Shown here: in pieces, positions 4,701-52,584 of the stretch
Layout of the letters: every line of letters begins with the position of its first letter
Position numbering within the stretch: position 1 is the stretch's first letter
Virus record (IMG/VR): IMGVR_UViG_3300020577_012390
Coordinates: 1-64,000 of that record
Direction: 5' to 3' (one strand)
Origin: a virus
Lineage: Duplodnaviria > Caudoviricetes
Length of the DNA: 64,000 nt
The notes under the pieces: model-generated
Databases searched by the model: none
What the model saw: the letters and a program-made list of their open reading frames with translations, nothing else
What the model was told of the DNA's origin: nothing
Made by a program: the position numbers and the translations under genes

Positions 4701-4943
4701 CTGGTCATGGACGGAAATAACGCGCCTGATATCCGTGCGAGGGTGGTCTCGACCGGGACCCAGGACGCCATCGCGTCTTTCGCGAACAACCGGATCGGAC
4801 GCATCAAAGCGGACGCGGTTGGTCCTGCTGCCCTGGCGGCGGAACCCTCGGTCCGGGGGGTGGCGACGGGTCGAGGCCCGGCCTGGACCATCTACAACGA
4901 CATAATTGAAGGCCAGAATCACGCGATGCTGGAGACCCCGTTA
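1731..4943 (+). CDS. Tail fibre/tailspike with predicted parallel beta-helix; ends at TTA
   Basis: TTG start after GGAGG; G/S/T/A-rich; repeated F-x-x-C-x-F beta-helix-like motifs; first in-frame TTA (4941-4943) overlaps the next ATG (standard-code end 5018). Confidence 0.7.
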
Positions 4944-5629
4944 TGGCCAAGGAGACTGTCAACCTCACGATCACGGATGGCACCAACCCCCTCAGCGGGG
5001 TCAAGGCGACGCTTTTGAGGGCGGGGGGTGGGGGTACCATGGGGGCGGGCACCTCGAACGGTTCTGGGGTCGTTTCCTTGGCGGCAATCGTGGACCCTGG
5101 GGTCTATTCGGTGATCCTGGACAAGACGGGTTACAGGTCACCCAGGCCGGAACCCTCGATCACGGTCCCCGATACCGGCGGGGTCACCCCTTACGCCCCG
5201 GCGTCCATCGCGATGGTTCCGCTAAGGATCACGGACCCCAGCGGGATCGCGTACTGCACCGTGTACGGGTTTTTCTCCGCCTCAAATCCATCAGAGGTCC
5301 GGCTCTTCGTCGAGATCGGGTCTCAGGGCGACGCGAACTGGTTGCAGCCCTCGAACCCCGGTTCGGCGGTCGACAAGCAGCCGGTCTTCCAGGTCGCGGA
5401 GGTTCGCCAGGTCCCGGTCGAAGCGTCCGGCAGGTTCTCCCTGGACGTCCCCGTGGGGGCGATGGTGAAGCTCTCTGTACCGGAATCTCGCCTCTACAAA
5501 TTCTTCCGGGTCCCCGCGCAAGATGCGGTGAACCTGAAGGACGTTCGGCTGTGGTTGGGGTCCTCCGATGGGATCAGCCTCAGCGAGAACGTGGGCACCA
5601 ACTTCTCTCAAGGAAGCGGCACAACATGA
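4943..5629 (+). CDS. Virion-associated protein with carboxypeptidase-regulatory-like beta domain
   Basis: GGAG RBS; motif DGTNPLSGVKATL...GTSNGSG...PGVYSVILDKTGY; ATGA overlap with next gene. Confidence 0.55.
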   Translation: MAKETVNLTITDGTNPLSGVKATLLRAGGGGTMGAGTSNGSGVVSLAAIVDPGVYSVILDKTGYRSPRPEPSITVPDTGGVTPYAPASIAMVPLRITDPSGIAYCTVYGFFSASNPSEVRLFVEIGSQGDANWLQPSNPGSAVDKQPVFQVAEVRQVPVEASGRFSLDVPVGAMVKLSVPESRLYKFFRVPAQDAVNLKDVRLWLGSSDGISLSENVGTNFSQGSGTT

Positions 5630-5862
5630 ACGAGACAACGTTCTCCAACGCCCTAAAAGCGTTCGCGGGTTCGCGCAAGGCCCTGGTCCTGTCGGTGGCG
5701 ATCATCGGCGTCGTTGCCCTCAACATCGCCGGGAAGATCGAGGTCCAGGCGGCGCTCGACTTCATCTGGAAGATCGTGGGGATCTGGATGGGAGCCGTGG
5801 CGGTCGAAGATGCGGCGGCGAAGACCTCCGCCAAGAAAGACGACCCCGGGGACGTGCAGTAA
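5626..5862 (+). CDS. Small membrane protein, holin-like
   Basis: 78 aa with two hydrophobic segments and charged C-terminus; end of tail module. Confidence 0.5.
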   Translation: MNETTFSNALKAFAGSRKALVLSVAIIGVVALNIAGKIEVQAALDFIWKIVGIWMGAVAVEDAAAKTSAKKDDPGDVQ

Positions 5863-5913
5863 ATAGAACGTCCTAAAAGCGATTGACGGGGGGTGGGGGA
5901 GGGGGTACCAGGG

Positions 5914-5943
5914 TTGACGGGGTAGGAAAACCAGTTATAGGTT
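5914..5943 (+). promoter_or_regulatory. Sigma70-like promoter for the replication module
   Basis: TTGACG-18-TAGGTT upstream of the helicase. Confidence 0.4.
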
Positions 5944-5973
5944 GTTCCACATGCCCCGGAAACCGGAAACCCC

Positions 5974-7356: not shown

Positions 7357-7359
7357 GTC

Positions 7360-8746: not shown

Positions 8747-8935
8747 ATGCACTTCGTTGAAATCGAATACACGAAACCTGACCGCTCGAAGGTCATCACG
8801 ACCGTTTCCGTCGATGGCGATTCGGTCCCCAACCACCTTGCTATCTATCGTGCCATCCAGGCGGCGGGTCTCGACGCCATCACCTACAAGGTCCTCCGGT
8901 TCCTGGATTCGCGGTTCCAGCCGGTGAAGAAGTTA
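8747..8935 (+). CDS. Small hypothetical protein; ends at TTA
   Basis: GAGGG RBS; TTA 8933-8935 overlaps next ATG. Confidence 0.6.
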
Positions 8936-9435
8936 TGGCGCTGAAAATCAAGTTCAAGCGTCAGACCCCCATCCCGCACGAGTACATGGGCGGGTTCGCG
9001 GACCGGCCTTCGATGCGGACCTCCCGGGAGGCGCTGGAGTTCCTGCGGACCGAGAAGGTCCCCCGCGAGTCCTGGCCCGTCTCGGGGATCGTCGCCCTCT
9101 TCATCGAGGGGTACGAGGCGCGGTTCCGCCGCAAGGTGACCTCGATGGGCGGGAACTTCTTTGCCGAGGTCGTGGTGGCGGTCGCGCAGCTCGTTATCCG
9201 GGTCGGGGCGAAGGACGCTTCCGACGCGGTCGAGGCGGTTTTCAGCGACCAGCTCAAGTGGGTCACGTCGAGCCACCACAAGTTCCTTCTCAACGAAAAT
9301 AACTACGCCAAATTCATCATCCCTGCGATGTCGGCCATCGACGAGAAGCGCGGGGGTCGGGCGAGGGCGGCGGGCGAGCAGGCCGAGTTCACCCGGGACA
9401 ACAGCGGAGAGGGCTGCGAGGAGATCGATTTCTAA
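8935..9435 (+). CDS. Hypothetical protein (possible replication initiator partner)
   Basis: TAATG overlap with the DnaC-like gene. Confidence 0.55.
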   Translation: MALKIKFKRQTPIPHEYMGGFADRPSMRTSREALEFLRTEKVPRESWPVSGIVALFIEGYEARFRRKVTSMGGNFFAEVVVAVAQLVIRVGAKDASDAVEAVFSDQLKWVTSSHHKFLLNENNYAKFIIPAMSAIDEKRGGRARAAGEQAEFTRDNSGEGCEEIDF

Positions 9436-10043
9436 TGGCTAAAAACGTAATTCGGGTTCCACCGCGTTTCCAGGGCGCCACCCTGGATTCTATCGACGAC
9501 GACCTCTTCCCCACGGTCGCGCCATGGATCGCGAAGGTCGAGAAGGAGGGGTGCGCCATAAAGAAGATGAAGGGGTTCATCTTCAGCGGGCCACCGGGGG
9601 TCGGGAAGACCTGGACCATGGCGGCACTCACCTCCTGGTGGGCGCCCAAGGGGGACTACGAATTCGTCACCGCCCCAGACCTGTTCGAGCGTTACTCGAT
9701 TTTCGGGGACGCCGAAAACGGTGAGGGTAAGTCTGTGGACACGTACCGCGGGAAACCCTATAATCAGACGGTCGAAACGGTACCCTGGCTCGTGATAAAC
9801 GACCTGGGGAAAGAATACCGGGGCGGCAAGATGGCGGAACTCAATACCCATAAGCTCGGGAGGATTCTCCGGGCGAGGAGTGAGCGGGTTCTGCCGGTTT
9901 TCATCACCACCAACCTCCCGCTCAAGGGGGAGAAAGAAGACGAGACTCTCTGGGGAATTTACGGCGGCTCAATTACGAGCCTCCTTCGTGAGATGACCAA
10001 GGCGTATCAAGTGATCGGGCCCGACCGGAGGAGGTCGGAATAA
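9435..10043 (+). CDS. DnaC/IstB-like ATPase (helicase loader)
   Basis: PPRFQGATLD N-terminus, Walker A GPPGVGKT, Walker B-like LVINDLGKE, R-x-E-R-x-LP-x-FITTNL. Confidence 0.8.
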   Translation: MAKNVIRVPPRFQGATLDSIDDDLFPTVAPWIAKVEKEGCAIKKMKGFIFSGPPGVGKTWTMAALTSWWAPKGDYEFVTAPDLFERYSIFGDAENGEGKSVDTYRGKPYNQTVETVPWLVINDLGKEYRGGKMAELNTHKLGRILRARSERVLPVFITTNLPLKGEKEDETLWGIYGGSITSLLREMTKAYQVIGPDRRRSE

Positions 10044-11296: not shown

Positions 11297-12544
11297 ATGG
11301 ATATCGAGCGCGCGTTCATCACGAAACTCTGCCAGACCGGGGACATGCCTTCGGTCCAGAAAGATCGATTTACGGGCGAGGTTTTCATCGAGCCGGTCTA
11401 CACCGAGATTTATGGGTGGATCGATAAGCAGTACATCGCGACGGGTCAGGTTCCCTCGGTCGAGCTTTTGCGGGAGGAGTTCGAGGAGTTCGAGCCCGAA
11501 GAGTGCGACGACGAGATCCCCATTCTCGTAAATCGCCTCAACGAAAAACGGTTGTACGCGGAACTCGCGCTGGTTTCCAAAGATATCCGGATCAAGAGCA
11601 GGACGGACCCGAAGGATGCGTTGTCGTACGCCCAGAGCGCGATAACGAAACTCACCGTTACATATGACGCTCAGGGCGACGAGATCGACATCTCGAAGAG
11701 CGGGAGCCAGATCACCGAGCGGTACGAGCGGAACAAGAACTCGAAGGGCCTCCTCGGGTACCCCTTCCCCTGGGCCAGGTTCACCGCGATGACCCGCGGG
11801 GCGCGCGGGGGCCACCACCTCGGGTTCTACGGCGATTCGGGGTCGATGAAGACCTGGCTGCTGATCTACCTGGCGATATGGTTTATCAAGCAGCAGATTC
11901 CGGTAGTCCTGTTCACCAAGGAAACGCCGGTCGAGGATATCCAGAACCGCGCGGCGTCCATCCTGGCCGAGGTGGATTACGAGAGGTTCCAGGACGGTGC
12001 GCTGAACGAGGAAGAGGAGACCCGCTTCTATGACGCGATGGATTCTCTGGAACTCGAAAATGCACCCCTCCATATCATCGAGGTGATGGGGATGGGGGCG
12101 CACGCCCTAGCAGAAATCAAGAGCAAGATTTTCCTCTACGGGGCGAAGATCGCCATGATCGACAACCTGTATTACTACGCGGAGAATTTGGAGTGGCAGA
12201 ACTTCGGTATCCTCTGCAACGGTATCCGTCAGATGGCGAGGAAGGAGAAAATGCCGATCTTCTCTACGAACCAGACGAACAACGACAAGAAAGCGGGCGC
12301 CGGCTTCTCTGACGTCGGGTACGGGAAGGTCTACGCGCAAAGCTGTACGGAACTCATCCGGATCGTGCGCGAACCCATGCAGGTCGACCGGGAAGAACTC
12401 ATCCTCTGGACCAAGAAGCTCTCGGAGGGGAAACCCGGGCGGATCGCGATCAACGCCAAGCCTGGATACGACTTCTCCGAGAAGGCCATGATCGAGGACG
12501 GGGACCCTGCGGCGAGCGGAATTGACGACGCTGATATCACGTTA
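11297..12544 (+). CDS. dnaB: DnaB-like replicative helicase; ends at TTA
   Basis: P-loop GDSGSMKT, KETP..DIQNR, MIDNLY, STNQTN motifs; TTA 12542-12544 followed by GGAGG RBS and primase ATG (standard code would run 161 codons into primase). Confidence 0.85.
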
Positions 12545-12554
12545 GGAGGACACC

Positions 12555-13652
12555 ATGAGCACAGCGGACAAGATCAAGGGGTGGATGAGCGACGCGGGCT
12601 GCAAGGGGATTCGGGCGTCCAACGGAAATTGGGTCTCCACCTGCCCCTTCCACCGGGCGAAGGACGGGCTCCAGTTCGCGATGACGATGGATACCGGGCT
12701 CTATGTCTGTTACTCCGCGAAATGCGGCGCCCAGGGGAACCTGCTGACCTTCCTGATGGAAGGCGTGGACATGGAGCCGAAGCGGGCGATGGCGGAGGTG
12801 TCCAGCCTCGACCTCCAGGGGGCGATGTTCCTGGACGACGACAGCGATATTCTGCTGCCGAAATACGAAGACCGGCGCAAGAAAGACGGACCCGTCACCG
12901 ACCCCGTCCACGCGGCGCCGAACCCGCGGTACGTCCACCTCTGCGGGCGGTGGTGCCCCGACTTCCTCCTGAAACGGGGGTTCAAGAAAGAGGCGCTGCG
13001 CAGGTGGAGGATCGGGTTCGACCGTGAGGAGCAGCGGGTAACCATACCCGTTTATGACAGGGCCGATAAACTGATCGGTCTTTCGACCCGTGGGACCAGG
13101 AAGGACGACCCCCGGCCGAAGTACCTCCACCTCGACTTCCCCCGCTCGTCATACCTCTTCGGGGAGAACAGGATGATGAAGGGCCTCAACCGGGGGATCA
13201 TCGTCGAAGGGCAGCTCGACGCGGTCGCTATCTCACAGTTTTTCCAGAGCTACGAAAACCCTGAAGGTCGTCCCGAGGACCTCACCTACTTCGTGCCCCT
13301 CTCTACGATGGGGTCCCGGGTGAGCGCCCGCCAGATCGACAAGATGGCGGAGCTGGATATCGTTGTTCTGTGTTTCGATAATCCGGCCATCGACGAGGAC
13401 GGTCATCGGACCACCCTGTACGTAGGCGACCAGCTCCTCGCGAGGATGGGTCCTAGTCGGGTTTTCGTGGCTTCATTTCCGTCTGTCCTCCGCGAAGACG
13501 GGTCCGCGAAGCGCCTGAAAGACCCCGCAGAATTCCTGGAACACCCGGACTCCGACCGCCTGTTCCGGTACCTGCTCAACTCTCGGAATTTCGTCTATTA
13601 CGACGAGTGGAGCATTGAAAATGAAGTTTGCGTTTCCCGTGGGGGTCGATTA
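12555..13652 (+). CDS. dnaG: DNA primase (Zn-finger plus TOPRIM); ends at TTA
   Basis: CPFH...CYSAKC zinc finger, IIVEGQLDA and VLCFDN TOPRIM motifs; TTA 13650-13652 then AT-rich spacer. Confidence 0.85.
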
Positions 13653-18810: not shown

Positions 18811-19233
18811 ATGAAACAGACAAAATACTTCGTGCTGAAAGACAAGACCGACCGGATGTACCCCTGGTTCATCAGCCAGCCTGATGCGCCCATCGGGGTG
18901 TGGCCTGGATACGGGTGGGCGGGAGAAGACCGCAAGAAGGACCGGATGCGGTTCAAGACCCGCGAGGAGGCGAAGAAGGGCAAGAAGCGCGTCCTGTATG
19001 CGTTCGGGGGCGAGCCCACCATCGTCCGGGTGGTGCGTAAGTACCGGAAACCCAGGCTCTTCATCAAACGGACCTCCGATGGGTTCTACTTCCAGCCGGG
19101 GAAGGTCATCGGGGGTCATTGCTGGTCCCTCCAGCGGAAACACGATTTCAAGGCCGATGAGGTAAAGGAGGTTTTGAAAAACCTTCGAGCCACCTACCCC
19201 AAGGAGACCATCAAGCTGGTCAAAGTCACCTGA
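18811..19233 (+). CDS. Hypothetical basic protein
   Basis: Operon-packed; TGATG overlap with next gene. Confidence 0.55.
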   Translation: MKQTKYFVLKDKTDRMYPWFISQPDAPIGVWPGYGWAGEDRKKDRMRFKTREEAKKGKKRVLYAFGGEPTIVRVVRKYRKPRLFIKRTSDGFYFQPGKVIGGHCWSLQRKHDFKADEVKEVLKNLRATYPKETIKLVKVT

Positions 19234-19655
19234 TGGCGGTCCTCAAGCGGCCTCCCCGGGGGATGACGTCCTCGAAGAGGCAAGAGAAGAAGACGGCGCG
19301 CGAGTTCGGGGGGAGGCGCACGCAGGGGAGCGGGAACAAGTGGCACGATAAGGGGGATGTAAAGACTCCGAAATTCCTTATCGAGTGCAAAACGACGGAT
19401 GCGGCGTCGTACCGCCTGGACAAGGCGACCATCCAGAAGATTCAGATCGAGGCGGCCATGGCGGGGAAGGAACCCGTCCTGCGCATTGATATTCAAGGTC
19501 TTGAACTCGCGGTTATTCCGGTGTACCTTTTCAAGAACCTAACAACGAAAGACGACGAAGATGCCACCGACACCGAAAAAGACCCTGGCTCAGAGGATGA
19601 GGGACGCGGAACAGAAGGCGGAGATCGCGGCCCAGACCGACCCCGAGGAAGGTGA
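19233..19655 (+). CDS. PD-(D/E)XK nuclease, Holliday-junction-resolvase-like
   Basis: EKKTA...GSGNKWHDKGDV...FLIECKTT. Confidence 0.7.
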   Translation: MAVLKRPPRGMTSSKRQEKKTAREFGGRRTQGSGNKWHDKGDVKTPKFLIECKTTDAASYRLDKATIQKIQIEAAMAGKEPVLRIDIQGLELAVIPVYLFKNLTTKDDEDATDTEKDPGSEDEGRGTEGGDRGPDRPRGR

Positions 19656-21404: not shown

Positions 21405-21921
21405 ACTCAAGACCCCAAAAACGGAAGAGAAGTCCGCGCTCCTCGACGAGACGGAGTTTCTGGCTGACCTGACCGCGAGGGCGCGGAAGGCACACCTCCC
21501 CCGGTTCGAGCGCCCGAAGTACGCGGACGGAACCCTCCTCGAACCGAGCCTTCCCCCTGACTTGACGATTTTGACCGACACTCAAATCGGTAAGCTCTTC
21601 TCCGAGTTCGCGGCGATGGCTCAGTGGTCCCAGATGCGTCTGGCGGTCTACAACGTCGAGCAGGCCACGAAGAAACGGGTCGAGAAGATGACCCGGGCGA
21701 AGGTTCGGCTGGAGAAGAGCGGTACGAACCAGGACAAGGACGCAAAGGTGGAGATCGACCCCCGCACCAGGGCGGCGGGTTACGAGGCGCTTTTGGGAGA
21801 GGCGATATTCACGATGACGGATGCGGTGCTCCAGGGGTACCTGATCGGTCGTGATGCGTGTTCCCGGGAGCTAACTAGGCGGGGTTGGTCCCGCGAGAAC
21901 TTCGGAGCGCGCGGGCAATGA
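21397..21921 (+). CDS. Hypothetical helical protein
   Basis: GGAGG RBS; ATGA overlap with next gene. Confidence 0.6.
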   Translation: MPKLKTPKTEEKSALLDETEFLADLTARARKAHLPRFERPKYADGTLLEPSLPPDLTILTDTQIGKLFSEFAAMAQWSQMRLAVYNVEQATKKRVEKMTRAKVRLEKSGTNQDKDAKVEIDPRTRAAGYEALLGEAIFTMTDAVLQGYLIGRDACSRELTRRGWSRENFGARGQ

Positions 21922-22205
21922 CCACCGAAAACGTCCAGGAACTCCGTGTGGCCTTCAACACGGACATTCACAGTTTGGCCACCTCGATAATCCGTAACCA
22001 CGACGAGGGGCGCCGGATCTACCTGGCGTGTGTCGGGAGTACGGCGGTCCACCAGGCGATGAAGGCGGTCGCTTCGGTCAACGCGAAGAGCGATGGTCAG
22101 GTGGCCGTGACCCCGTTCTTCGACGAGGTCCGGACCATCGACCGGGAGACGAAGAGGCCGATAGTTTTGACGGCCTTGAAATTCTGGGTTATCTTCGAGA
22201 AATAA
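21918..22205 (+). CDS. spoVS: SpoVS-family (Alba-like) protein
   Basis: LRVAFNTDIHSLATSI...IYLACVGSTAVHQAMKAVA...PFFDEV...TALKFWV parallels the SpoVS pattern LKVSAKSSPNSVAGAL...AIGAGALNQAVKAVA...PAFTDI...TAIKLIV. Confidence 0.7.
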   Translation: MTTENVQELRVAFNTDIHSLATSIIRNHDEGRRIYLACVGSTAVHQAMKAVASVNAKSDGQVAVTPFFDEVRTIDRETKRPIVLTALKFWVIFEK

Positions 22206-23727: not shown

Positions 23728-24111
23728 ATGCTGGTAGCGGGTTCAGTCACGGTTTCCGGTCCCGATCCGCTCGGGGAGTCGGGTTCCGGTCTCGCGTGGG
23801 CGATCTACACCGCCGACAAGGCGACGTCGGCGATCCTGGACCCCGACGTACCCCCCGAGGGGTGGCCGTCTGGTCCGGAAGCGTGGGCGGTCAAAGCGAA
23901 AATCGGGCGCTACAATCTCCTCAAGGAACTCGCCCGTAAGGCGACGGCGTACGCGGCGGGTATGGTGGGGTACCTGACGGCGAACGCTGAGGTCGAAGTC
24001 AAGGTGACCACTTCCACCGGGGGCCTCCAGCGGACCCCCAACCCCAACAACCCCAACACCGACACGGTGGCGCCCTCGACGGAGAAGACCCTGAGCGGTA
24101 CGATCTCCTGA
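23728..24111 (+). CDS. Hypothetical protein
   Basis: Operon-packed; TGATG overlap. Confidence 0.55.
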   Translation: MLVAGSVTVSGPDPLGESGSGLAWAIYTADKATSAILDPDVPPEGWPSGPEAWAVKAKIGRYNLLKELARKATAYAAGMVGYLTANAEVEVKVTTSTGGLQRTPNPNNPNTDTVAPSTEKTLSGTIS

Positions 24112-24317
24112 TGCCCAGGAAGTACGCGAATGGTTCCGAGAGCCGCCTGTCCCGCGAGGGTTTGGGCGGCGCTGAGATCGATGGGAAGCGGGTCAAAGTC
24201 ATCTACGCCCACGGGGAAAGGCGTAGGAAACGCACGGTCCATTTCGTTGATGGAACGGCGAAAAACATGAGCATCGATACCCTGGTGGGTCACCTCATCG
24301 AGAGCAGGGAGAAATGA
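24111..24317 (+). CDS. Small hypothetical protein
   Basis: TGATG and ATGA coupled. Confidence 0.55.
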   Translation: MPRKYANGSESRLSREGLGGAEIDGKRVKVIYAHGERRRKRTVHFVDGTAKNMSIDTLVGHLIESREK

Positions 24318-25374: not shown

Positions 25375-25746
25375 ATGGCGAAATACCGCATCGGGAAGAC
25401 TCTGGAGTTCGCGGCGGCGCACCATATCGAGGGTCTTCCCCCCGACCACCCCTGCTCCAACGTCCATGGTCACTCCTACAAGATGACCATCGAGCTGGAG
25501 AGCGAAGCCGTCGATGACGTCGGTTTCGTCCTGGATTTCAACGTCCTGAAAACGCTCAGGAACCACCTCGACCACCAGGACCTCAACAAGGTCCTCCCCT
25601 GCAACCCGACATCGGAGAACATCGCGAAATGGGCCGCTCAAAAACTAAACGACCTGTTGTTCAGGATGGGCGAGCTGGATGTAAAGATCCTGCGGGTCCG
25701 GGTGTCGGAGAGCGAAACGAGCTGGGCGGAGTGGTCGTCCGTCTAG
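25375..25746 (+). CDS. queD: 6-carboxy-5,6,7,8-tetrahydropterin synthase
   Basis: FAAAHH...HPCSNVHGHSY; LDHQDLN; NPTSENIA; VSESETSWAE. Confidence 0.9.
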   Translation: MAKYRIGKTLEFAAAHHIEGLPPDHPCSNVHGHSYKMTIELESEAVDDVGFVLDFNVLKTLRNHLDHQDLNKVLPCNPTSENIAKWAAQKLNDLLFRMGELDVKILRVRVSESETSWAEWSSV

Positions 25747-25972: not shown

Positions 25973-26683
25973 ATGAGCATGTTGAAACTCGTTGACTTCG
26001 AGAACCCCGTCTGGCGCACCATCCAGGGGGAGGGGAAGCATGTCGGGACCCCCTCAACCTTTGTGCGCTTTTGGGGGTGCGATTTCTCATGCTCATGGTG
26101 CGACACGAAGCGGTCCTGGGAGCCGGGGTCGAACTACACCGAAATCTCGAAGGAAGACCTGCTCCAGCGGATTCTCCAGGAGGCGGGAGACACCCGGCAT
26201 GTCGTCTTGACGGGCGGCAATCCCTTCCTCCAGGGCGATGGGGTCTCCGCGATCATCGTCGCGCTCCAACAGGCGCGGAAGTACGTCACGGTCGAGACGC
26301 AGGGGAGCGTGTTCCACGAGAATATGGTCGCGCTCCCCAACCTCCTCTCCCTGTCCCCGAAGCTGCACGACTGGCGGGAAGAAGAGCTTGAACGGATTTT
26401 GAGTCATCGTAAATATCGGTTTGCCGCGTCTGGGATCGCGGAGACCCAGATCAAGGTCGTCGTGGCCAACGACGTCGGCGCGGGTATGGCGGTTTCCAAG
26501 CTGCGAAAAATCTTTGAGAACTATCGACTCGGGCTCCTCCTCACGGAGGGGTTGATCCTCCAGCCCGAGTTCTCGTCGGGGAGGGTGGGTGTCGAAGCGG
26601 CGGTCAAGGCTGCCATCGACAACCCGGACGTTCCTCTGCGGGTCATTCCGCAGGCCCACAAGAAATCTCTTTTCGTGAGGTGA
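25973..26683 (+). CDS. queE: 7-carboxy-7-deazaguanine synthase (radical SAM)
   Basis: TIQGEG...FVRFWGCDFSCSWCDT (CX3CX2C), VVLTGGNP, VETQG, LSPK, LQPE, PQAHK. Confidence 0.9.
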   Translation: MSMLKLVDFENPVWRTIQGEGKHVGTPSTFVRFWGCDFSCSWCDTKRSWEPGSNYTEISKEDLLQRILQEAGDTRHVVLTGGNPFLQGDGVSAIIVALQQARKYVTVETQGSVFHENMVALPNLLSLSPKLHDWREEELERILSHRKYRFAASGIAETQIKVVVANDVGAGMAVSKLRKIFENYRLGLLLTEGLILQPEFSSGRVGVEAAVKAAIDNPDVPLRVIPQAHKKSLFVR

Positions 26684-31702: not shown

Positions 31703-32056
31703 ATGCCGAAGCGAGAGAATTGGAAGGATCTAACGGGGCGGGTCTTCGGGTCCCTCCGGGTGGTGCGCCCCTACATCGATCCCCGAGGGCGGGCGTCATG
31801 GTGGTGCGATTGCCTGGCGTGCGGGCGGATCACCATCATTGTGAAAACGTGGCATCTCGAAAACGGTAAATCGACCCGGTGTAACCAGTGCAAGGGGAAG
31901 GTCTACCGGAAGCTCACCGAGGACCAGGTGAGGGAAATTCGGGACCTGCATAAGCGTAAACAAGCGGGGTACGAGACCCTGGCCCGGAGGTATGGGGTGT
32001 CCAAGGGAGTCATCACCTCGCTGATGAGCGGGAAGACATACGAGGACGTGGTCTTA
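31703..32056 (+). CDS. HNH/AP2-endonuclease-associated N-terminal Zn domain plus HTH, no nuclease domain; ends at TTA
   Basis: DLTGRVFGSL...WWCDCLACG...C-x2-C; LTEDQVREIR...YGVSK; TTA 32054-32056 overlaps next ATG. Confidence 0.6.
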
Positions 32057-32433
32057 TGCCACCGCGTAGGGACTTGACGGGTCAGGTGTTCGGGCAGCTA
32101 ACCGTTATTCGCTACTCCAGAAGCGATAAGGGCGGTACCCGTAGGAGCTACTGGTGGTGCGAGTGCTCCTGCGGTCGGGTCTGCGTCGAGGTTCAACTTT
32201 CCGCCATCGTCAGCGGGAACACGAAGCGATGCGCGGCCTGTCGAATCGACATGGGGGCGGGCCACAAGTTGGCCCTGACCGAGGATCAGGTGAGGGAGAT
32301 TCGGCGCCTGTATTCCGAAAAGAAGACCACCTACCAGGAGCTTTCCGACATCTTCAAAGTCTCCCCTCCGGTCATAGCGCACGCCCTCGGGAAGGGGACC
32401 AAGCGCGTCAGGCGCTACGATGCGGTAAAGTGA
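32056..32433 (+). CDS. Paralogue of the preceding gene (Zn domain plus HTH)
   Basis: DLTGQVFGQL...WWCECSCG...CAAC; LTEDQVREIR. Confidence 0.6.
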   Translation: MPPRRDLTGQVFGQLTVIRYSRSDKGGTRRSYWWCECSCGRVCVEVQLSAIVSGNTKRCAACRIDMGAGHKLALTEDQVREIRRLYSEKKTTYQELSDIFKVSPPVIAHALGKGTKRVRRYDAVK

Positions 32434-34506: not shown

Positions 34507-34927
34507 TCCGAAACACGGCGTCAACCTTGTCCTCCTGAGCTGCTTCTTCTGCGGCGGTGACGCGGGCCTGATGATGATGGGGAAGGTCTCACGGTCGAAG
34601 CTGGAGAAGATGGGGATCGACCCCTCGATGATCGACGGCTACAGGGACGACGCCACCATCCGGGGGAAAATCTGCAACGGGTCGATCTGCTCCGAGTGCG
34701 AGAAGGTCAAGGACCAGGCGATCTTCATCGTGCAGGTCCGCGACGGGGAGGAGGGGTCGAATCCCTACCGCACGGGGAAGATGGTCGCGATCAAGGAGGA
34801 GGCAGCCGAGAGGATGTTCCAACCGGAGTTTTTCGAGAGCGTCAAAAAGTCTCGGATGGCGTACTGCCCCGAGTCCGCGTGGAAGAACCTCGGGCTCGAC
34901 GAGGCGACCAAGGGGATGGACGGGTGA
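34490..34927 (+). CDS. Hypothetical protein with CxxC pairs
   Basis: CFFC...CSEC. Confidence 0.55.
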   Translation: MGINLSPKHGVNLVLLSCFFCGGDAGLMMMGKVSRSKLEKMGIDPSMIDGYRDDATIRGKICNGSICSECEKVKDQAIFIVQVRDGEEGSNPYRTGKMVAIKEEAAERMFQPEFFESVKKSRMAYCPESAWKNLGLDEATKGMDG

Positions 34928-35229
34928 AGCGATCCGAGAACGGCCTCACGAGCGAGGAGCGCCGGGAGATCGGGGTCCTGATGAGTCATTGGCACTCGTC
35001 CCAGGGTGACCCCATCTACGCGGTGGGCTCGTTCTTCGTGGACGGGAAGCGGTACCCCGACCGCGAGCAGGTCTCGTCCGCGCTCTACTGGATCGAGAAA
35101 GACCTCGGACAGGCGAGGGAGCGGAAGCACGGGTGGGGGCGCAAGGAGGTGGGGGAACTCCTCAAAATCTCGAAGGCGCTCAAGCGCGAACTCTGGACGT
35201 ATCCGAAGCCGAAAGAAGAGGACGAATTA
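34924..35229 (+). CDS. Hypothetical protein; ends at TTA
   Basis: GTGA-coupled start; TTA 35227-35229 overlaps next ATG and is followed by TGA. Confidence 0.55.
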
Positions 35230-35663
35230 TGAAAACGGTGAAAATCCTTCGTGGCATCCCCGGTAGCGGGAAGTCGACGCTGGCGCGTGAGATGGGCGAG
35301 GTAACGGTGTCCGCCGATGACTATTTCACGGTCGACGGCGTCTACAGCTTCAACCCTCGCGAACTCCCCAACGCCCACCAGGCGTGTTGGCGTCGGTTCT
35401 ACCGCGAGGCGGAAGCCGGTACCGAAGTTATCGTCGTCGATAACACGAACATCACCGCCGCCGAGATCGCGCCCTACGTTCTCCCCGCGGAAGCGAACGG
35501 GTACAAAATCCAGATCATCACCATCCAGGCCGACCCCGTTCAGGCGTTCAACCGCAACGTCCACGGGGTCCCCTTCGAGGTCGTCTTGAGGATGGCCGAG
35601 CGTCTGAACAGCGAAGTTCTCCCCCCGTGGTGGGAGCATATCCGCGAGGACGGGGGTTCCTGA
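35229..35663 (+). CDS. P-loop kinase (AAA_33/polynucleotide-kinase-like)
   Basis: ILRGIPGSGKST, SADDYF, VIVVDNTN, RNVHGVP. Confidence 0.8.
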   Translation: MKTVKILRGIPGSGKSTLAREMGEVTVSADDYFTVDGVYSFNPRELPNAHQACWRRFYREAEAGTEVIVVDNTNITAAEIAPYVLPAEANGYKIQIITIQADPVQAFNRNVHGVPFEVVLRMAERLNSEVLPPWWEHIREDGGS

Positions 35664-35665
35664 CC

Positions 35666-35920
35666 ATGGCGAGGTGCGAAGACTGGCCGGCGTGCGGTCA
35701 CGAGTTGGGTCTCTGCCCCGACTTCGATGACGAAACTGGCGAGCAGATAAACATGAAGTGCGTCTGCGGGGCGGTCCTGCCTGTGGACCATCATTCATCC
35801 TGTTGCGACCGTTGCCTCCACGACCCCGACTGCCCGGGGTGCGACTCCCGGTTCTGCGCGAATCGGCTCGAAGACTACGGCGGCGACGAGTACGAAGACG
35901 ACGAGGAGCCCGAGGAGTTA
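35666..35920 (+). CDS. Small Cys-rich protein; ends at TTA
   Basis: Many Cys/His; acidic tail; TTA 35918-35920 overlaps next ATG. Confidence 0.55.
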
Positions 35921-36267
35921 TGGCGAAGAAGAAAGCCGTCACGGACCGGAAACCTCTCCAGTGGCACCCGGGGGGTCTGGATAACGAGTTCGACGACGAA
36001 GACCGCATCACCTACACCGATTGGTTTTTCAACGTCCGGACTCACTCCGGCATCGTCATGACGGTGTACCTGACGCGAGAGTACACGGCGGAGCAGACCG
36101 ACTTCGCGGTGACGTGCGAACAGATGGGCCTGGACCGGAAGATGGACCTGCCCAAGGGGGCGACCGTCGCGGACGCGAAGCGTCAGGCCCTACGGGAATT
36201 CATGCGGGAGAATAACGACATCGGTGTCGCGCTTCTCCAATACCTCATCGACACCGCCAAGTTCTAA
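35920..36267 (+). CDS. Hypothetical protein
   Basis: GAGGAG RBS; TTATG-coupled start. Confidence 0.55.
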   Translation: MAKKKAVTDRKPLQWHPGGLDNEFDDEDRITYTDWFFNVRTHSGIVMTVYLTREYTAEQTDFAVTCEQMGLDRKMDLPKGATVADAKRQALREFMRENNDIGVALLQYLIDTAKF

Positions 36268-40463: not shown

Positions 40464-41640
40464 TCTATCTCCGGCCTTATGGGAAGGTCGATACTTTTCT
40501 CGGGAAAATGGCTCTGGGTTGAAGAGGGGTCCCCCCGTCCGATCACCCGCTTTTAGCGGAAAGTCAAAACCCGAATTACCTACATCCGGGGAGGGAGGGG
40601 GCGGGTTGTCCTACCTGGTAGGATAAGGTGCGAGTTTCTGCCCGGGTAACCCTCTCCCTGGTAGAGGGGCGGGGGCGTTATCCGGATAGCGTTTATCAGA
40701 TAGCGAATAACGTTATCCGGATAGCGGGTTTCCTATCCGGATTGACTATCAGGATAAACGTTTATCAATCGTTGATAAACATTACAAGAACCCACCTTGT
40801 CCTACAGGGTGCGAGTTTCTACTTGGTACCCCGGCGAGGGGGGTGTGGACCCTTGACCAGGTAAAGGTGTCTCGTGTGACCCTACCAGGGACCTCCGGGG
40901 AAGGGTCAACCCCCAGAACCGTTATTAGCGGGGCGTAAAACGGTACAGAACTCGTTTTAGGGGTCGGATGGGGGGTAGGGTGCGGAACGGTCCCGCGAAG
41001 CGTTTTAGGGTCGGTTATATTCGATTACCGAGAATCCATCCCACACTATCCTACCTAAAATTAGAAAGTTTCTAAAACCTATTGCGAGACGTGTCCGGGG
41101 GGTTTAGGTTCTGGTCTACCGAAGTTCAAGCGATTGAATAACGGTACTTGATCCTTCTCAACTAGACGCGGTTTCCACCCTTCGGGGTGGCGCGTCTCAT
41201 ACTGCGACCGGGGTAAGACCGAAACGGACACCACCCCAACCCAGAAACGTAACTGAACGGTACCCCCTTTCACTAGGGGGGCGAGTAAGTAACCAGGTAC
41301 GACCACGCGCGAAACCTGATACTGGGGAATCTCCTATCAAGAGTAGGTTATCGGATATGAGAGTCCGATAAACGAAAGAAAAGATAGGCGCGGTTTGATC
41401 ATTGACAACTAAAACGGAAGTAACGGGGTCTAATCTCAATTACCCCAGAGTGTTCCCCTCTATGAGGGCGTCACACGATAGGAATCACCCTATCAGGGAC
41501 ACACTTCCACCCCACCCATCGGGGTCAGCAGAAGACTAGAGCGGACAGATGGGGGTACCGGGTAAGACCCGGCCAAGCGTAAACGGTAGAGTCTCCTGTT
41601 AGGGGTGCGAAACCACCCCCTGACGTAACGGAGATTCAAA
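40464..41640. other. About 1.2 kb non-coding, lower-GC region rich in palindromes; candidate origin or genome terminus
   Basis: No credible ORF; TATCCGGATA at 40679 and 40714; GTTTATCAA-TCG-TTGATAAAC at 40760-40780; CCTACC-T-GGTAGG at about 40610-40622. Confidence 0.6.
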
Positions 41641-42254: not shown

Positions 42255-42324
42255 GAAAACCCTTCGCACCCCTACCAGGGGACTCTACCGTAACCCAGGA
42301 TGCAGCGAAGTTACGGAGATTCAA

Positions 42325-43737: not shown

Positions 43738-43832
43738 GCTAGGGTTCGGGGCGGCGAGGGTCGGATTCGACATCCGGCCTTCGCTTCCCCCCACCCCTGC
43801 GGTTCCAACGACGACGTAACGGAGATTGAAGC

Positions 43833-45356: not shown

Positions 45357-46004
45357 TAAATTCTTGGTCTTGTCGGGGGCGACCCAGGGCCCCTGAATGA
45401 TCTCGCCGCCGGGGGCGGGCGGGACCGCGGGGGGAGGAGTGCCGTTCTTGGCGACGGCGTCTGCGGCGATCTGGAAGAGCCCACGGATAGCGCCGAGGAC
45501 TTCCGGGGGGACGACGTTCTGAAGTTCCCGCTGCATCTCGGGCCACTCGTCGAGGGCGATGATGTTGTCGTGGCTCATGTCGTTCTCGTAGACGAAGGCG
45601 ACGCTCTCCAGGGCGATAGTGTTTATGCCGCCGTTCAAATTCCCATACGGAAGGGTGATCGCCTCCGTGATGGGGCTGAAACGGTGGACCCGGAGGGAGA
45701 CCCTGGGGGTGCCCACCGCGTCGGGGGCGTAGAGGGCGGGGATGTAGAGCACGATCTCGGTGGGGACCGGGTAGAACGCGATCTGATCGAGGCTCTTCCT
45801 CCCGGCGGCCTCGGACTCCGGGGTGTTGGGGACGATGGCGCGGGTCAGGACACAGGCCAGCCCCTTGATGCCGATGGTCGTGTGGAAGGAGTGGCACGGG
45901 ACGAGTTCGAGGTTCCCGCGGGTCATGGGGCCGTTATCGTTTATCAGCTTCCGATAAACCATGAAGCGGAAGGCGGGGTACCCGATGAGCTGGCTCTGTT
46001 CCAT
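45357..46004 (-). CDS. Hypothetical protein; ends at TTA
   Basis: TTATG-coupled start; TTA 45359-45357 followed by GGAG RBS of the next gene. Confidence 0.6.
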
Positions 46005-46636
46005 AACCGCTTCCCCGGGTGGGTGGACGCGACTCCGGTGCTCGACTTGTAGAGCTGGGTGGACCGGATGAGGACCTCCAGCCAAGCCGACTTGTCCATC
46101 TTACCGAATTTCCCGGCCTCGATTTTCATCAAGGTTTCGTCGGCCCCTTCGGGGATCTGAATGTGGTACATGGCGTCGTTGTCCAGCCACTCTTCAGCCA
46201 CCTCGACCTGGGCGTAGGGGATGGCCCAGGACTCGGTGGTGTGCTGGTCGTTGGCGGTGTCGAGGAGATCCAGGGGGAAGAGGAGGATCTGCTCGGGCTC
46301 GTCGAACCCCAAGCACTTCGTCCAGTAAGTGAACTTGCGAATAACCAGACTCGGGCGCTGGCCGGTCCACCCGGCGTAGGTGTAGACCCGGATCTTCTGG
46401 CAGCTCTCCAGGACCTTGCGCAGGGCCTTCTCCCTCGTCTCTGGGGTGCAGCACTGGTCCCCCATGGCGTTCATCCCCACGTACTGCTGGCTCGTGAGCT
46501 TCAGGTACCGGCGGTTCCCGAACCAGATGGCCTCCAGGCGGTTGACTCCGAGGTCGGTCGTGGTCCCCGCGCCATCGTCAGCGACGATCTGGAAACGGAA
46601 CGTCGAAAATCCGGCTTTCATTTCTGCGATCTTCAC
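46004..46636 (-). CDS. Hypothetical protein; ends at TTA
   Basis: TTA 46006-46004 overlaps next ATG. Confidence 0.6.
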
Positions 46637-46650: not shown

Positions 46651-47337
46651 TCAGCAGCGGCGGTCACAGAAGATCCGGAGGCGATCCTCGTTGCCGCGGA
46701 AACGGTTCACGTCCACGTCCCCGACGATGCCGGGGACCTTCCCCGTCCTCGAAAACTGCCAGAAGTCCCACCCCTCGGGTTGAGACATCGGGCGCTTCCA
46801 CGCGGCGGGGAGCAGCGGGGAAGGTTCCTGCGTGTGATGGGCGACCCAGAGCGGGCACTCGTCGAAGGACCGGCTCTTGACGTAGGTGTCCCAGGTGCCG
46901 ACGTTCGTGTAAATGATCGGCGGAATTCCGATAGCCCCCCGAATGATCGACACCCACTCGTAGATTTTGGCCACCATCTCGACGGGGGTGAGCATCGTGC
47001 GGGAGTCTTCGTACTTCTCGACGTCGAGCACCGGAGGGAGGGTGCGACCATCGGCGGAGGAGGCGGGGTCCCCGATGGCTTCGAGGACCATCCGGGCCTG
47101 GGCGGCGACGTCCTGGTGAACGTCGAAGTATTGGTAAATGCCGGTGGTGAATTTCGGGTCCGCTGCCCTGGCGTTGATCCAGTTCTCCTCGAAGAGCTTG
47201 TCCCTCCTTAGCCCATCGGAGATCCGGATGAAGGCGAACTTGATTTCGCCGCCCGAAATTACCCGTTTCCAGTCGATGATCCGCTGCCAGACCGAAACGT
47301 CGATGCCCTTGACGAAGTCGTTGCTCATACCGGACAT
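46651..47337 (-). CDS. GH25 muramidase (endolysin)
   Basis: GIDVSVWQ, FAFIRISDG, GIYQYF, LPPVLDVE (DxE), IIYT, PLWVAHH, WQFSRTGKVPGIVGDVDVN. Confidence 0.9.
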   Translation of the reverse strand: MSGMSNDFVKGIDVSVWQRIIDWKRVISGGEIKFAFIRISDGLRRDKLFEENWINARAADPKFTTGIYQYFDVHQDVAAQARMVLEAIGDPASSADGRTLPPVLDVEKYEDSRTMLTPVEMVAKIYEWVSIIRGAIGIPPIIYTNVGTWDTYVKSRSFDECPLWVAHHTQEPSPLLPAAWKRPMSQPEGWDFWQFSRTGKVPGIVGDVDVNRFRGNEDRLRIFCDRRC

Positions 47338-47373: not shown

Positions 47374-47799
47374 TAAGCGGCCGCTCTTCTTCGCGCGGTC
47401 CCTCTCGGTCTTCCCCGGGTGCCTCGGAGGACCACCTCGACCCCCACCCTGAGCCAGGCTTGCGCGGCGTTCGTCCATCGCGGCGCGGGTCTCCAGCCAT
47501 TCGGCCTGATCAGCGCGACCTGCGGCGACGACCCACTCCTTCGCCTCGGTCAACATCTCGATGGCCATGTCGAGGGTTTCGGAGTTCATCTCCGCGGGGA
47601 TGTTGCCCTGGAACTTCACCTCGATGAAGCTGGAAATATCTCCGGTGACTTTCTTGTAACCCATCCGGAAGCTGTACTTCCGGCGAGAGGGGAGTTCGAG
47701 ACGCTGGACCGTCACCACCAGCTCGCCCCTCTCTACCCGATGGACCTCCTCCCAGTTCAGCCGGGGTTTACCATCAGGGGTCATGTTATTTGTCGACAT
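47374..47799 (-). CDS. Hypothetical protein; ends at TTA (fused to GH25 under the standard code)
   Basis: TTA 47376-47374, then a 36 nt spacer and the lysin ATG in the same frame. Confidence 0.6.
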
Positions 47800-48092: not shown

Positions 48093-48413
48093 ATGGAAAA
48101 GCCTAAATACAACATCGAGGGCCTACTCCCCCTTCATCCCCCGCACGGGGACCCAAACACGAAGAAGGTCTGGTGGTACATGCACCGGGAAAACCCCTCG
48201 GTCGAAGGGTTGATCCTCGCCTCCACGGCGTATTGGGCGAAGTGCGGGGCGTCGAGGCTGTCTTCTGGCGTTTATGAACCTGGTCAATTCGAGGTTCAGG
48301 AAGCCAAGGAGGACGTCATCTCTCGTCTGTATGCTCGGTCCCGGGTCGTTGACGAAACCCCGGCGATGGTGGATAATAAGACTCCGAAAAACGGAAAGAA
48401 GGGCAGGAAGTTA
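48093..48413 (+). CDS. Hypothetical protein; ends at TTA
   Basis: TTA 48411-48413 overlaps next ATG. Confidence 0.55.
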
Positions 48414-48784
48414 TGGCACGTTTCACGGTATGGGTTTTGTTCGCGCCAAATGCGGAGATGTTCCCGAAGCTGCGGGTGTTCGTCCCCCCGGACTACGACA
48501 TGCGGGCCCCGGCGGTCTCTGATGCGTTCCCCCGGGTGAAGCCCGGGACGGACGCGGACGTCATGGGGAGGGTCTGCGCGAACATTGCTCGGGAGTTCTT
48601 CAAGGGCGAGTGCGAGGTCCGGCTGGCCGTCTTCCACGAACCCCCGGAGGACCCTGGAGAGCTGGCCCAGATCCCCGAGGCGGATCGGATGGGCTGGTGG
48701 TGGGACATGGAGGCGGATCGGCGGGCGGTTTTGCCGCCCTGGATCAACGATGACCTGACCGGGGCCGTCATCCCGGTACGTTTA
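48413..48784 (+). CDS. Hypothetical protein; ends at TTA
   Basis: TTA 48782-48784, then a GTTACGGAGA leader. Confidence 0.55.
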
Positions 48785-48815
48785 TCAGGGCCCGAAGAAC
48801 GTTACGGAGAACAGC

Positions 48816-50487: not shown

Positions 50488-50623
50488 CGGTGACGCTCTC
50501 TCTCCAGCCCTCAGCGACTTCTCCAAAAATGTCTCTGAGCGCAAGCTGGGGAGAATTGGAACGAGTCATAAGGGTTATGGCTTCCGGATCGACCCCAGCG
50601 GTAGGAAGCCTGAAAAGCGTTGA
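50312..50623 (+). CDS. Hypothetical protein
   Basis: GGAGG RBS, GTG start. Confidence 0.45.
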   Translation: MVPEYRTREEMESHAPEGPRAFMARQEAEYEEMMRQQMKDHEAQVTGQTEASFIRFANNGDALSPALSDFSKNVSERKLGRIGTSHKGYGFRIDPSGRKPEKR

Positions 50624-50699
50624 CGGGTACCTAACCGCCTATCATCCTTTGTGGGTCTGAAACTGCCCCTTCGGGGGCCCCCACACAGGAGAACACCAC

Positions 50700-50927
50700 A
50701 TGGCAGCGGCAGCGGGGCGCGGTGCGCCCGATCTCGAAACCTCGAAGAACGTGATGGCCCGGATGCGCGAGATGGCCAACCGCGGCGAGTCCTTCGCCCG
50801 TGGTCAGCGCGGCTTCGCCCGTCAGATGGCTCGTGGCGCGGCCCGCGGTCTCCGCGGCGCGGGCGACAAGGCGAACGCCGCCCTCGTGCGCGACCTCGCC
50901 GCCGCGACCGGCGCGGGCGGCTCCTTA
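50700..50927 (+). CDS. Small Arg/Ala/Gly-rich basic protein; ends at TTA
   Basis: AGGAGA RBS; TTA 50925-50927 lies in the stem of a C(UUCG)G hairpin (CTTACCC-TTCG-GGTAGG). Confidence 0.55.
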
Positions 50928-51106
50928 CCCTTCGGGTAGGGCGTCGGCGTTCGGTTTTCCTCATCGGCACGTTCCTCTCCTGTAATTCAGTGGGCTAAAA
51001 GCGACACCCCACACGGCTACCGAAACCCACTTGACAACCAAGGGGCCGGGGTATCGCGATTCTCGCGGAGTCGATCTTACGCCGAAGACGGTGTATCCTC
51101 CTGGGA

Positions 51107-51916
51107 ATGGCGACGGTCTTTTTCTCGGGCGGCATCGACTCCACCACGCTCGCTTTTGACGTGGCGAAAAACCCCTGGAGGTACGGCATCTCTCCGAAGA
51201 CGGAGGATTTCCGCCTCCTGACCGCGTACATGGGGAAGGAGAAGCCGGCCCACCTCGGCAGGCTGGCGACGAAGATCCGCGAAGAGGCCGAGTGGACGGA
51301 GTTCGCCGGGTTCTCCCACGAGTTCGTGGACGCCACGAGTCTATTCGATTTTCAAAAGTCGGATATCCCGCATGGGGGCGCGGGGACGATGACTCCCCTG
51401 TCGACGAAGTACCAGCCGGATCTCCAGTCGATCTCCTACGCGCCGGGCCTCCACACCCTGCTGGCCACCGTGGCGTACAACCGCGAATGGTTCGGTAGGA
51501 GTCTGTCCGCCTTCAGCGACCCCCAGGCGTTTTTCGGGTTCCAATACGACGGCCCGATCTGGAACGAGGTGGACAAGGGGACCGTGACGCCGAACGACGT
51601 CTCCCCCGATTATATCGCGGCCCTGAATACCCTGGTGAGGGTGTCCGGACCCCGTCCGGGGGTGCGGTTCCGTGCGCCGTTCCTGGAGAACCGGATGGAT
51701 CGGGTTCATATCCTGGAATTGGCCATCACAATTGGCGTTCCGCTCACCTGGACGAGTTCCTGTGAGCAGGGGTGGATGGTGAACTGCGGGTACTGCGGAC
51801 AGTGCCTCCGGAGGATGAAGGCGAGTTCGTACCTGGAAGACGCCATGAAGACGTTCTTGAAGAAGCTGGAAGACAAGAAAGCGGCGGAGAAAGCCGCGAA
51901 GAAGGGTAAGAAGTTA
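51107..51916 (+). CDS. Divergent QueC-family PP-loop ATPase; ends at TTA
   Basis: FSGGIDSTTLA PP-loop; SSC-x6-CGYCGQC zinc motif; TTA 51914-51916 overlaps the queC ATG. Confidence 0.7.
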
Positions 51917-52584
51917 TGAAGCCGAAATACACTGTGGTCCTCTCCGGGGGACAGGACTCGACCACCTGCCTGTATTGGGCGCTCGACAAGGGCGTCGATG
52001 TTCAGGCCGTGACTTTCCACTACGACCAGCGCCACGACACCGAGGTCGAGGCGGCGAAGCGGATCGCTGCTCACGCGGGGGTCCCCCACACCGTCCTGGA
52101 GGTCCCCGGCCTCGGGGTTGCGGGGAAGGGGTCGTCCCTCACGCGGGACTTGCCGCTGGACCTCGATGGGGGGTTCCAGGGGCTCCCGTCGTCCTTCCTC
52201 CCTGGCCGGAACCTGGTCTTCCTGTCCCTGGCGGCGGCGTTCGCCATCCCCCGGAACTCCTTCTACCTCGTCACCGGGGTCTGCCAGACGGACTACTCGG
52301 GGTATCCGGACTGCCGGCGGTCGACCATCGACGCGATGGAGAAGGCCATCAACCTCGGTAACGATCTTCACGGCTTCAAAATCGATACCCCCTTGATGCA
52401 CCTGACGAAGGCGGAGACGGTCCGCCTCATGAGGGGGTTCGGGAACCAGGCGTGGGAGGCGCTAGGGATGTCGATCACCTGTTACGAGGGGAAGCACCCG
52501 GGGTGCGGCGCGTGCGCGGCGTGCGTGCTGCGAAAAAAAGGTTTTTCGGAAGCTGGACTTGGTGACCCTGCGGAGGACAACTGA
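51916..52584 (+). CDS. queC: 7-cyano-7-deazaguanine synthase
   Basis: LSGGQDSTTCL, YDQRH, PGRNL, YSGYPDCR, TPLM..TKAE, CYEG...CGACAAC. Confidence 0.95.
   Translation: MKPKYTVVLSGGQDSTTCLYWALDKGVDVQAVTFHYDQRHDTEVEAAKRIAAHAGVPHTVLEVPGLGVAGKGSSLTRDLPLDLDGGFQGLPSSFLPGRNLVFLSLAAAFAIPRNSFYLVTGVCQTDYSGYPDCRRSTIDAMEKAINLGNDLHGFKIDTPLMHLTKAETVRLMRGFGNQAWEALGMSITCYEGKHPGCGACAACVLRKKGFSEAGLGDPAEDN

Follow-up and report, generated by a model that had tools for sequence, protein, structure and literature searches.

UUA as a probable fourth stop codon at the TTATG gene junctions of an uncultured bacteriophage

The stretch of DNA analyzed here (the window) comprises 64,000 nucleotides and is the first 64 kb of the 85,395-bp single-contig genome of an uncultured phage (IMG/VR record IMGVR_UViG_3300020577_012390; called G0 below). 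The genome has a G+C content of 61%, with ~0.82 at third codon positions (GC3), carries nearly all of its genes on the + strand, and encodes a family-A DNA polymerase, a DnaB-like helicase, a primase, a RecA-like protein, a terminase, a GH25 lysin, and the QueC, QueD, QueE and QueF enzymes of 7-deazaguanine synthesis. Its large terminase subunit (TerL) is just ~30% identical to those of the nearest GenBank phages. At eight gene junctions in the window, the A of an in-frame TTA, a leucine codon in the standard code, is also the A of the ATG that opens the next gene (Table 1). We conclude, with a probability of roughly 0.8, that UUA acts as a translation stop in the infected cell, as a fourth signal beside UAA, UAG and UGA. 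In this explanation, the TTATG sites would be 1-nt stop-start overlaps like any UAAUG or UGAUG, with the fourth stop as terminator.

The sequence TTATG was confirmed at 4941, 8933, 32054, 35227, 35918, 48411 and 51914 on the + strand and at 46006..46002 on the − strand. Upstream of each TTA and in the same frame, 87–1083 codons are free of canonical stops and of any other TTA, except that the stretch at junction 51914 holds one, 5′ of the gene start; the open reading frames (ORFs) opened by the junction ATGs are 115–228 codons long. The terminator's last base is the first base of an AUG on the same strand at all eight sites, and at 13 sites genome-wide. In the upstream frame, a canonical stop is next reached 1–47 codons on, so under translation table 11 the gene pairs would overlap by up to 142 nt. 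The original prediction had listed these eight overlaps, together with canonical overlaps of the same geometry (TAATG at 9433; TGATG at 19231 and 24109), and all of them proved to be real junctions. It had also called for a count against other NTA-TG junctions. A strict filter applied to the whole 85-kb genome, requiring an open coding-like frame upstream and a coding-like ORF of at least 50 codons downstream, retained 10 of 56 TTATG sites versus 1 of 1,109 other NNATG sites that were neither stops nor ATGA overlaps (Fisher p = 3e-13), and versus 0 of 127 CTATG, GTATG and ATATG sites (p = 4e-6), an excess of TTATG far beyond chance. Relaxed filters gave 13 TTATG junctions (35227, 51914 and 64900 being added), ~3 TGATG, 1 TAATG and ~13 ATGA-type 4-nt overlaps, with no CTATG or GTATG junction and a sole ATATG junction that is itself an ATGA overlap.

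Overlap geometry by itself could not show that translation terminates at TTA, and the evidence that bears on termination comes from the gene map, homologues, composition and substitutions. Genome-wide, in-frame TTA clusters at the 3′ ends of ORFs. With gene ends set at TTA, none of the ~26,000 codons in coding-like ORFs was an internal TTA, where a ratio of TTA to TTG (232 TTG) mirroring that of CTA to CTG (33:723) would predict ~10. Between 34 and 37 of ~100–130 genes, about one-third, end in TTA, and in a crude gene set with TTA as a stop, the ends were distributed as TGA 47–61, TTA 34–37, TAA 12–17 and TAG 8–15. The map becomes tidy once TTA counts as a stop, as with helicase and primase or QueF and TerL (Table 1). 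About two-thirds of TTA ends are followed by a spacer, a Shine–Dalgarno (SD) sequence and an ATG in any frame. Table 11, by comparison, puts unrelated domains on one ORF (QueF with Terminase_6N, an unassigned protein X with PTPS/QueD, X with GH25) or makes ORFs overlap by up to hundreds of nucleotides, as with the helicase over the primase. QueF and TerL, for example, form an 809-aa fusion under table 11 and are separate genes in two distant relatives.

Table 1. Gene junctions in the window. The last column gives the number of codons from TTA to the next canonical stop in the upstream frame.
Feature	Position	Strand	Upstream gene	Downstream gene	Codons to next canonical stop
TTATG junction 1	4941..4945	+	1731..4943 (1070 aa, no family)	4943..5629 (228 aa)	25
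TTATG junction 2	8933..8937	+	8747..8935 (62 aa)	8935..9435 (166 aa), ending in canonical TAATG 9433	3
TTATG junction 3	32054..32058	+	31703..32056 (117 aa), HNH-endonuclease-like, tandem paralogue, PHROG 374 match	32056..32433 (125 aa), HNH-endonuclease-like, tandem paralogue, PHROG 374 match	7
TTATG junction 4 (TTATGA)	35227..35232	+	34924..35229 (101 aa)	35229..35663 (144 aa, AAA_33/polynucleotide-kinase-like)	1
TTATG junction 5	35918..35922	+	35666..35920 (84 aa, Cys-rich, acidic tail)	35920..36267 (115 aa)	47
TTATG junction 6	48411..48415	+	48093..48413 (106 aa), putative	48413..48784 (123 aa), ending in TTA at 48782	42
TTATG junction 7 (TTATGA)	51914..51919	+	51107..51916 (269 aa), QueC-like	51916..52584 (222 aa), QueC	1
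TTATG junction 8	46002..46006	−	46636..46004 (210 aa, ORFan)	46004..45357 (215 aa), ending in TTA 45359..45357	20
Comparator TAATG	9433..9437	+	8935..9435	9435..10043	
Comparator TGATG	19231..19235	+	18811..19233	19233..19655	
Comparator TGATG	24109..24113	+	23728..24111	24111..24317	
Non-overlapping TTA stop (TTA-GGAGGACACC-ATG)	12542..12557	+	11297..12544, DnaB-like helicase	12555..13652, primase (also TTA-terminated)	
Non-overlapping TTA stop (TTA GGGGAG..ATG)	53166..53186	+	52587..53168, QueF	53184..55016, TerL, same frame	
TTA stop	47374..47376	−	47799..47374 (141 aa)	47337..46651, GH25 lysin, same frame	

Two distant relatives, fetched whole, were used for comparison of orthologues: G001 (a complete genome of 81,362 bp with terminal repeats) and G002 (71,770 bp), whose TerL proteins are 58% and 51% identical, respectively, to that of G0. 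Neither genome contained a TTATG junction. The ends of G001 or G002 orthologues matched the TTA of G0 to within 4 residues in ~12 genes. Residues 2–729 of the protein encoded by 81778..83967 aligned to 733/733 and 718/718 residues of the relatives, residues 1–367 of a DUF932 protein to 368/368, and residues 1–203 of the 79960..80571 product to 206/206; the G001 orthologue of the helicase ends 4 residues from TTA. At 83965, outside the window, the G0 protein ends ..GGAGGGATCAAG[TTA], compared with ..GGAGGTGTGAAG[TGA] and ..GGAGGCGTCAAG[TGA] in the relatives, with the last codons conserved. The small gene upstream of junction 35918 is uncalled in the Joint Genome Institute (JGI) annotation, yet it has 21 homologues, all of which end at the acidic tail and none of which covers the 47-codon read-through tail. 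No alignment to the G001 orthologue was obtained for the C-terminus of the 1070-aa protein, which leaves the case at 4941 to periodicity and the downstream N-terminus; the upstream protein at 46006 had no homologue among 1.8 billion representatives. On the downstream side, N-terminal alignments began at residue 1–6 at 4941, 8933 and 51914 and, outside the window, at 78729, 80569 and 83965, marking the ATG as the true start; residue 4 aligned to residue 2 of the G001 orthologue at 4941, residue 3 to residue 1 of the G001 orthologue at 8933, and QueC at 51914 aligned from residue 1 of its G002 orthologue. The JGI gene caller, which uses table 11, picked the junction ATG at six of the eight sites (8933, 35227, 35918, 46006, 48411 and 51914).

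Composition and substitutions after TTA bear on the view that TTA is an ordinary leucine codon, in which case the upstream proteins would carry unconserved C-terminal tails and the genes would truly overlap by up to 142 nt or be fused, as public annotation pipelines called them in frames that are open under table 11. Directly after TTATG, GC3 periodicity moved to the downstream frame, with values of 0.75–0.88 at upstream-frame position 2. Fractional G+C at the three upstream-frame positions was 0.46/0.88/0.50 after the TTA at 4941, the pattern of the downstream frame, and 0.37/0.80/0.57 and 0.32/0.84/0.58 in the extensions at 35918 and 46006. The read-through tails are Arg/Ser/Pro-rich off-frame strings; that at 4941, LWPRRLSTSRSRM, has this off-frame appearance. 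Against ~94%-identical strains, ~15 unique substitutions in the extensions fell on downstream-frame position 3, 8 on position 1 and 2 on position 2, a bias that means that most of them strike position 2 of the upstream frame; substitutions fell on downstream-frame position 3 at 35918 and mostly so at 48411. Tails that have neither coding periodicity nor homologues and that change at upstream-frame position 2 are hard to reconcile with ordinary leucine, as is the lack of a Leu-coding TTA in any gene interior, and the strain differences described next add to the reasons for regarding this alternative as very doubtful. Sequence comparison shows that the translated, selected frame ends at TTA and that the downstream gene truly starts at the ATG.

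Protein clusters led to ten contigs (L070–L079) that come from four other sequencing runs and are 93–97% identical to G0. TTA was kept at 27 of 29 gene ends compared. TTATG was conserved at 8933 in L077 and L078 (96–97% identical), at 46006 in L079, and at 48411 in L074 and L079; the TTA of the helicase was present in L078 and that of QueF in L075, in which the sequence at 51914 was identical as well. The two changed ends are both TTA to TGA at 35227, in L071 and L073 (GACGAG-TGA versus GACGAA-TTA in G0), strains without the kinase-like gene. At 32054, L070, which is without the second HNH gene, has TAG at the same codon (GTGGTA-TAG versus GTGGTC-TTA in G0); L071 keeps TTATG. TTA therefore stands where homologues, both in the relatives and in the close strains, have standard stops. 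No gene-end TTA was changed to TTG or CTN among the compared strains, and the sole TTA-to-CTA change sits in an antisense shadow frame. Exchange for TGA or TAG, and never for a leucine codon, is not what would be expected of a codon read as leucine. In L079, a 1-nt deletion in a C run directly after the TTA at 47376 breaks the frame of the table-11 X-GH25 fusion, indicating that the spacer is untranslated; tolerance of this frameshift again speaks against ordinary leucine. L070–L072 carry a 200-nt insert at 35913; the further small ORF in it likewise ends in TTATG, joined to the same gene, 35920..36267. If UUA is a stop, the occurrence of TTA, TGA or TAG at a given codon in different close strains provides natural isogenic controls.

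Differences in gene content among 94%-identical strains fall exactly at TTATG junctions: L070 is without 32056–33191 (the second HNH gene and a neighbor), L071 and L073 are without the AAA_33 kinase-like gene at 35229–35663, and L070–L072 have the insert at 35913. TTATG junctions look like hot spots of gene gain and loss. In gene 35920..36267, the last sense codon before TAA, TTC (Phe) in G0, is TTA in L070 and L072, giving TTA-TAA (36262–36267); the proposed code would make this a tandem stop, the standard code a Phe-to-Leu change.

UUA might instead trigger a frameshift or bypass, as proposed for the split terminase of phiHau3, with ribosomes slipping into the ATG frame to make fusion proteins. 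UUA-triggered bypassing has been published for terminase genes of phiHau3-type actinophages of Streptomyces (PMC10732093), and the downstream ORF at TTATG is in the −1 frame. As in the Streptomyces bldA and phiHau3 systems, UUA is very rare in G0 and its position in phage genes is meaningful. In those systems, however, UUA is internal to a coding sequence or precedes a 7–10 nt gap in one conserved protein and is read as Leu when its tRNA is present, whereas here it is never inside a protein, closes about one-third of genes and alternates with TGA and TAG. Nowhere in G0 did we find UUA inside a coding sequence or before a gap interrupting one conserved protein; because no protein is interrupted, G0 does not have the Streptomyces bldA/bypassing device. 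Moreover, in the relatives each flanking ORF is a gene by itself that has its own start and stop, L070 has TAG at 32054 and is without the whole downstream gene, and two-thirds of TTA ends precede a spacer, an SD sequence and an ATG in any frame, leaving a frameshift or bypass very improbable. The original prediction, which held that ribosomes terminate at UUA and argued against a bldA-type effect, is supported by orthologue ends, downstream N-termini, the phase of periodicity and substitutions, the exchange of TTA with TGA and TAG, and the absence of internal TTA.

A sequencing or base-modification artefact, such as 7-deazaguanine in TGA read as T, would be in keeping with the preQ0/preQ1 pathway (QueC, QueD, QueE, QueF) that the phage encodes. 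An artefact of this kind would be blind to reading frame, but NTG followed by A was not converted to NTT followed by A: the CTT share before A was 0.04, below that before other bases. We rejected a TGA-to-TTA miscall at 7-deazaguanine, as the other two frames had no excess of NTT followed by A. The same letters were found in JGI 3300033066, JGI 3300033120 and the Logan assemblies of SRR32380193 and SRR32380196, which together cover seven of the eight sites. The 85,053-bp contig of JGI 3300033066 has 2 mismatches in 22 kb, neither at TTA, and is identical at 4941; the Logan contigs also match at other TTA stops. Agreement of five assemblies, and of diverged strains from four other runs with differing neighboring bases, the 34–37 in-frame TTA codons at gene ends, and the presence of the same Que genes without TTA ends in G001 and G002 make an artefact scarcely credible.

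The foremost competitor to UUA as a true stop is an unassigned ("hungry") codon, for which the host would lack or lose tRNA-Leu(UAA); ribosomes would stall at UUA and be rescued by ArfA/RF2, ArfB or drop-off, and TTATG would leave a stalled ribosome over the next AUG. Some high-GC bacteria, Micrococcus luteus among them, leave UUA unassigned, the sequence data show where a protein ends rather than how it was ended, and the phage encodes no release factor (RF). Stalling and rescue are slow, however, and tmRNA would tag the products for degradation, whereas about one-third of the genes, including those for the helicase, the primase, QueF and large structural proteins, depend on UUA. The free exchange of TTA with TGA and TAG in close strains is a further point against stalling. 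Backup stops within 3 codons, at 9/32 ends after TTA versus 8/44 after TGA, are no commoner after TTA; we had considered their enrichment as a sign of leakiness, and the difference from TGA was not significant. We therefore consider a hungry codon unlikely. The frequency of backup stops, no higher than after TGA, the use of the tightest junction geometry and the alternation with TGA and TAG argue for UUA as an efficient stop rather than a stall.

According to the mechanism that we favor, in which UUA is a stop, the ribosome would end the upstream protein at UUA, and the AUG that shares its A would start the next protein, either through reinitiation by the same ribosome or from its own SD site. 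By analogy with organelles, UUA would be read by a host release factor, most likely RF2 with an altered codon-recognition motif, and the host would have lost tRNA-Leu(UAA). Translational coupling at TTATG sites is plausible from their geometry. In the trpE-trpD and trpB-trpA pairs of E. coli, 1-nt UGAUG/UAAUG overlaps take part in such coupling. The G0 junctions resemble these in that the terminator's last A is the A of the next AUG, in that they join co-directional, functionally linked genes (QueC-like with QueC, HNH with HNH), and in that the upstream gene often contains an SD-like motif. They differ in having as terminator UUA, which supplies most 1-nt overlaps in this phage (10–13 versus ~4 with UGA or UAA); UGA is used mostly in the 4-nt AUGA form, which is impossible for UUA.

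Several observations weigh against termination at UUA, or limit what single sites contribute. The support for it comes from sequence comparison. No tRNA gene, RF-1-domain protein or Rfam match was found in the 85-kb phage genome; without a phage release factor or tRNA, UUA would have to be read by a factor of the host or by a phage product not recognised as such. Three of the eight junctions would look no different under the standard code: those at 35227 and 51914, where TTATGA is also an ordinary ATGA overlap, and that at 8933, where a TGA follows 3 codons on. The site at 8933 is accordingly a weak witness, and 51914, with TGA directly after TTA, says nothing by itself about TTA as a stop. 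The weakest upstream gene is ORF 48093..48413, which has no homologue, is uncalled by JGI and is backed by composition, its GC3 being coding-like at 0.63–0.80 from 48099. SD-like motifs lie 4–12 nt upstream of most junction starts, so that coupling would not be needed. Finally, TTA serves as a sense codon in more distant relatives, where it occurs even within the conserved TerL. G001 has 5 and G002 has 2 in-frame TTA codons, scattered inside genes, and neither has one at a gene end. The change would therefore be confined to G0 and its 93–97% identical strains, and the ancestral state of the clade would be the standard code. Among 40 metagenome loci related by TerL, we found no further relatives with TTA stops.

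Phage stop-codon recoding, in which TAG or TGA is read as an amino acid (codes 15 and 4), resembles the G0 case in that genes are miscalled under table 11 and become tidy under another code. The change proposed here runs in the opposite direction, from sense to stop, and is accompanied by no phage-encoded suppressor tRNA or release factor. The mitochondrial code of Thraustochytrium, in which UUA is a stop, is NCBI table 23. UUA has become a stop in labyrinthulean/Thraustochytrium mitochondria, in peDinoflagellate plastids (UUA/UCA) and in the mitochondria of Marsupiomonadales and Pseudoscourfieldia (UUA/UUG); these organellar stops accompany substitutions at RF2 Ser204 or in mtRF1a and tRNA loss, and the plastid case was termed the first sense-to-stop change outside mitochondria (PMC12574857). 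G0 shares with the organelles the removal of UUA from gene interiors, its occurrence at the stop positions of homologues beside standard stops, and its large share of gene ends. It differs in being a bacteriophage with bacterial-type translation (SD sites, 61% GC). Our literature search turned up no sense-to-stop change reported from bacteria or phages, the reports in the papers searched being from mitochondria and plastids (PMC12574857). We lean toward the broader view that UUA is a true fourth stop, read by an altered release factor, in a lineage of bacteria and in the phages of that lineage, which would be the first sense-to-stop change outside organelles.

If UUA terminates translation, a stop codon has been added to the genetic code of a free-living bacterium or its virus, and the UUAUG junctions would show that this stop is efficient enough for the tightest coupling geometry. 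About one-third of the phage's proteins would be wrongly extended, fused or dropped in public annotation, as with the 809-aa QueF-terminase "fusion", a helicase extended from 415 to 576 aa, and small genes left uncalled. Such a change could have been missed because its only effect on table-11 gene calls would be ORFs that are longer, overlap or are fused. Code-detection tools are not aimed at sense-to-stop changes; Codetta, for example, is unable to detect one (PMC9825746).

The base after a TTA stop is never A. We rejected a termination context as the explanation, because TTAA is avoided altogether as part of a general avoidance of palindromes: it occurs 0 times versus 46.6 expected in the whole genome and is also absent from the ten strain contigs. 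AAGCTT, ACCGGT, AGATCT, AGCGCT, CTCGAG (69 expected), GAGCTC, GGATCC and TTCGAA are likewise present in 0 copies, and CGATCG and CAGCTG in 1 copy each; together these counts amount to very strong avoidance of restriction sites.

A protein that JGI assigns to the SpoVS family (PF04232) is encoded at 21918–22205 and has no close cellular copy in 185,579 species genomes. In the search for the cellular host, scans of species genomes with a TerL profile and with SpoVS (the latter covering those 185,579) gave no close match, and a protein atlas search yielded generic GH25 clusters only. The genes for 7-deazaguanine (preQ0/preQ1) synthesis form two blocks. The first consists of QueD (25375..25746) and a radical-SAM QueE-like gene (25973..26683); the second, of the divergent QueC-like gene, QueC and QueF directly before the terminase (coordinates in Table 1). 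Judged by their gene content, the blocks predict a modified guanine in the phage DNA.

An 18-nt leader, GACGTAACGGAGATTCAA, occurs at 41622–41639, 42307–42324 and 43813–43830 (89–100% identical), directly 5′ of the ATG of genes 41641, 42325 and 43833, and its core, GTTACGGAGA (48801–48810), precedes a fourth gene at 48816; this shared leader may be a translation-initiation or regulatory element. The ~1.1 kb at 40557–41640 is gene-poor and contains short direct and inverted repeats, including two copies of CGTTATCCGGATAGCG (40676 and 40711). A 29-nt inverted repeat, 93% complementary, with arms at 41583–41611 and 42263–42291, flanks gene 41641.

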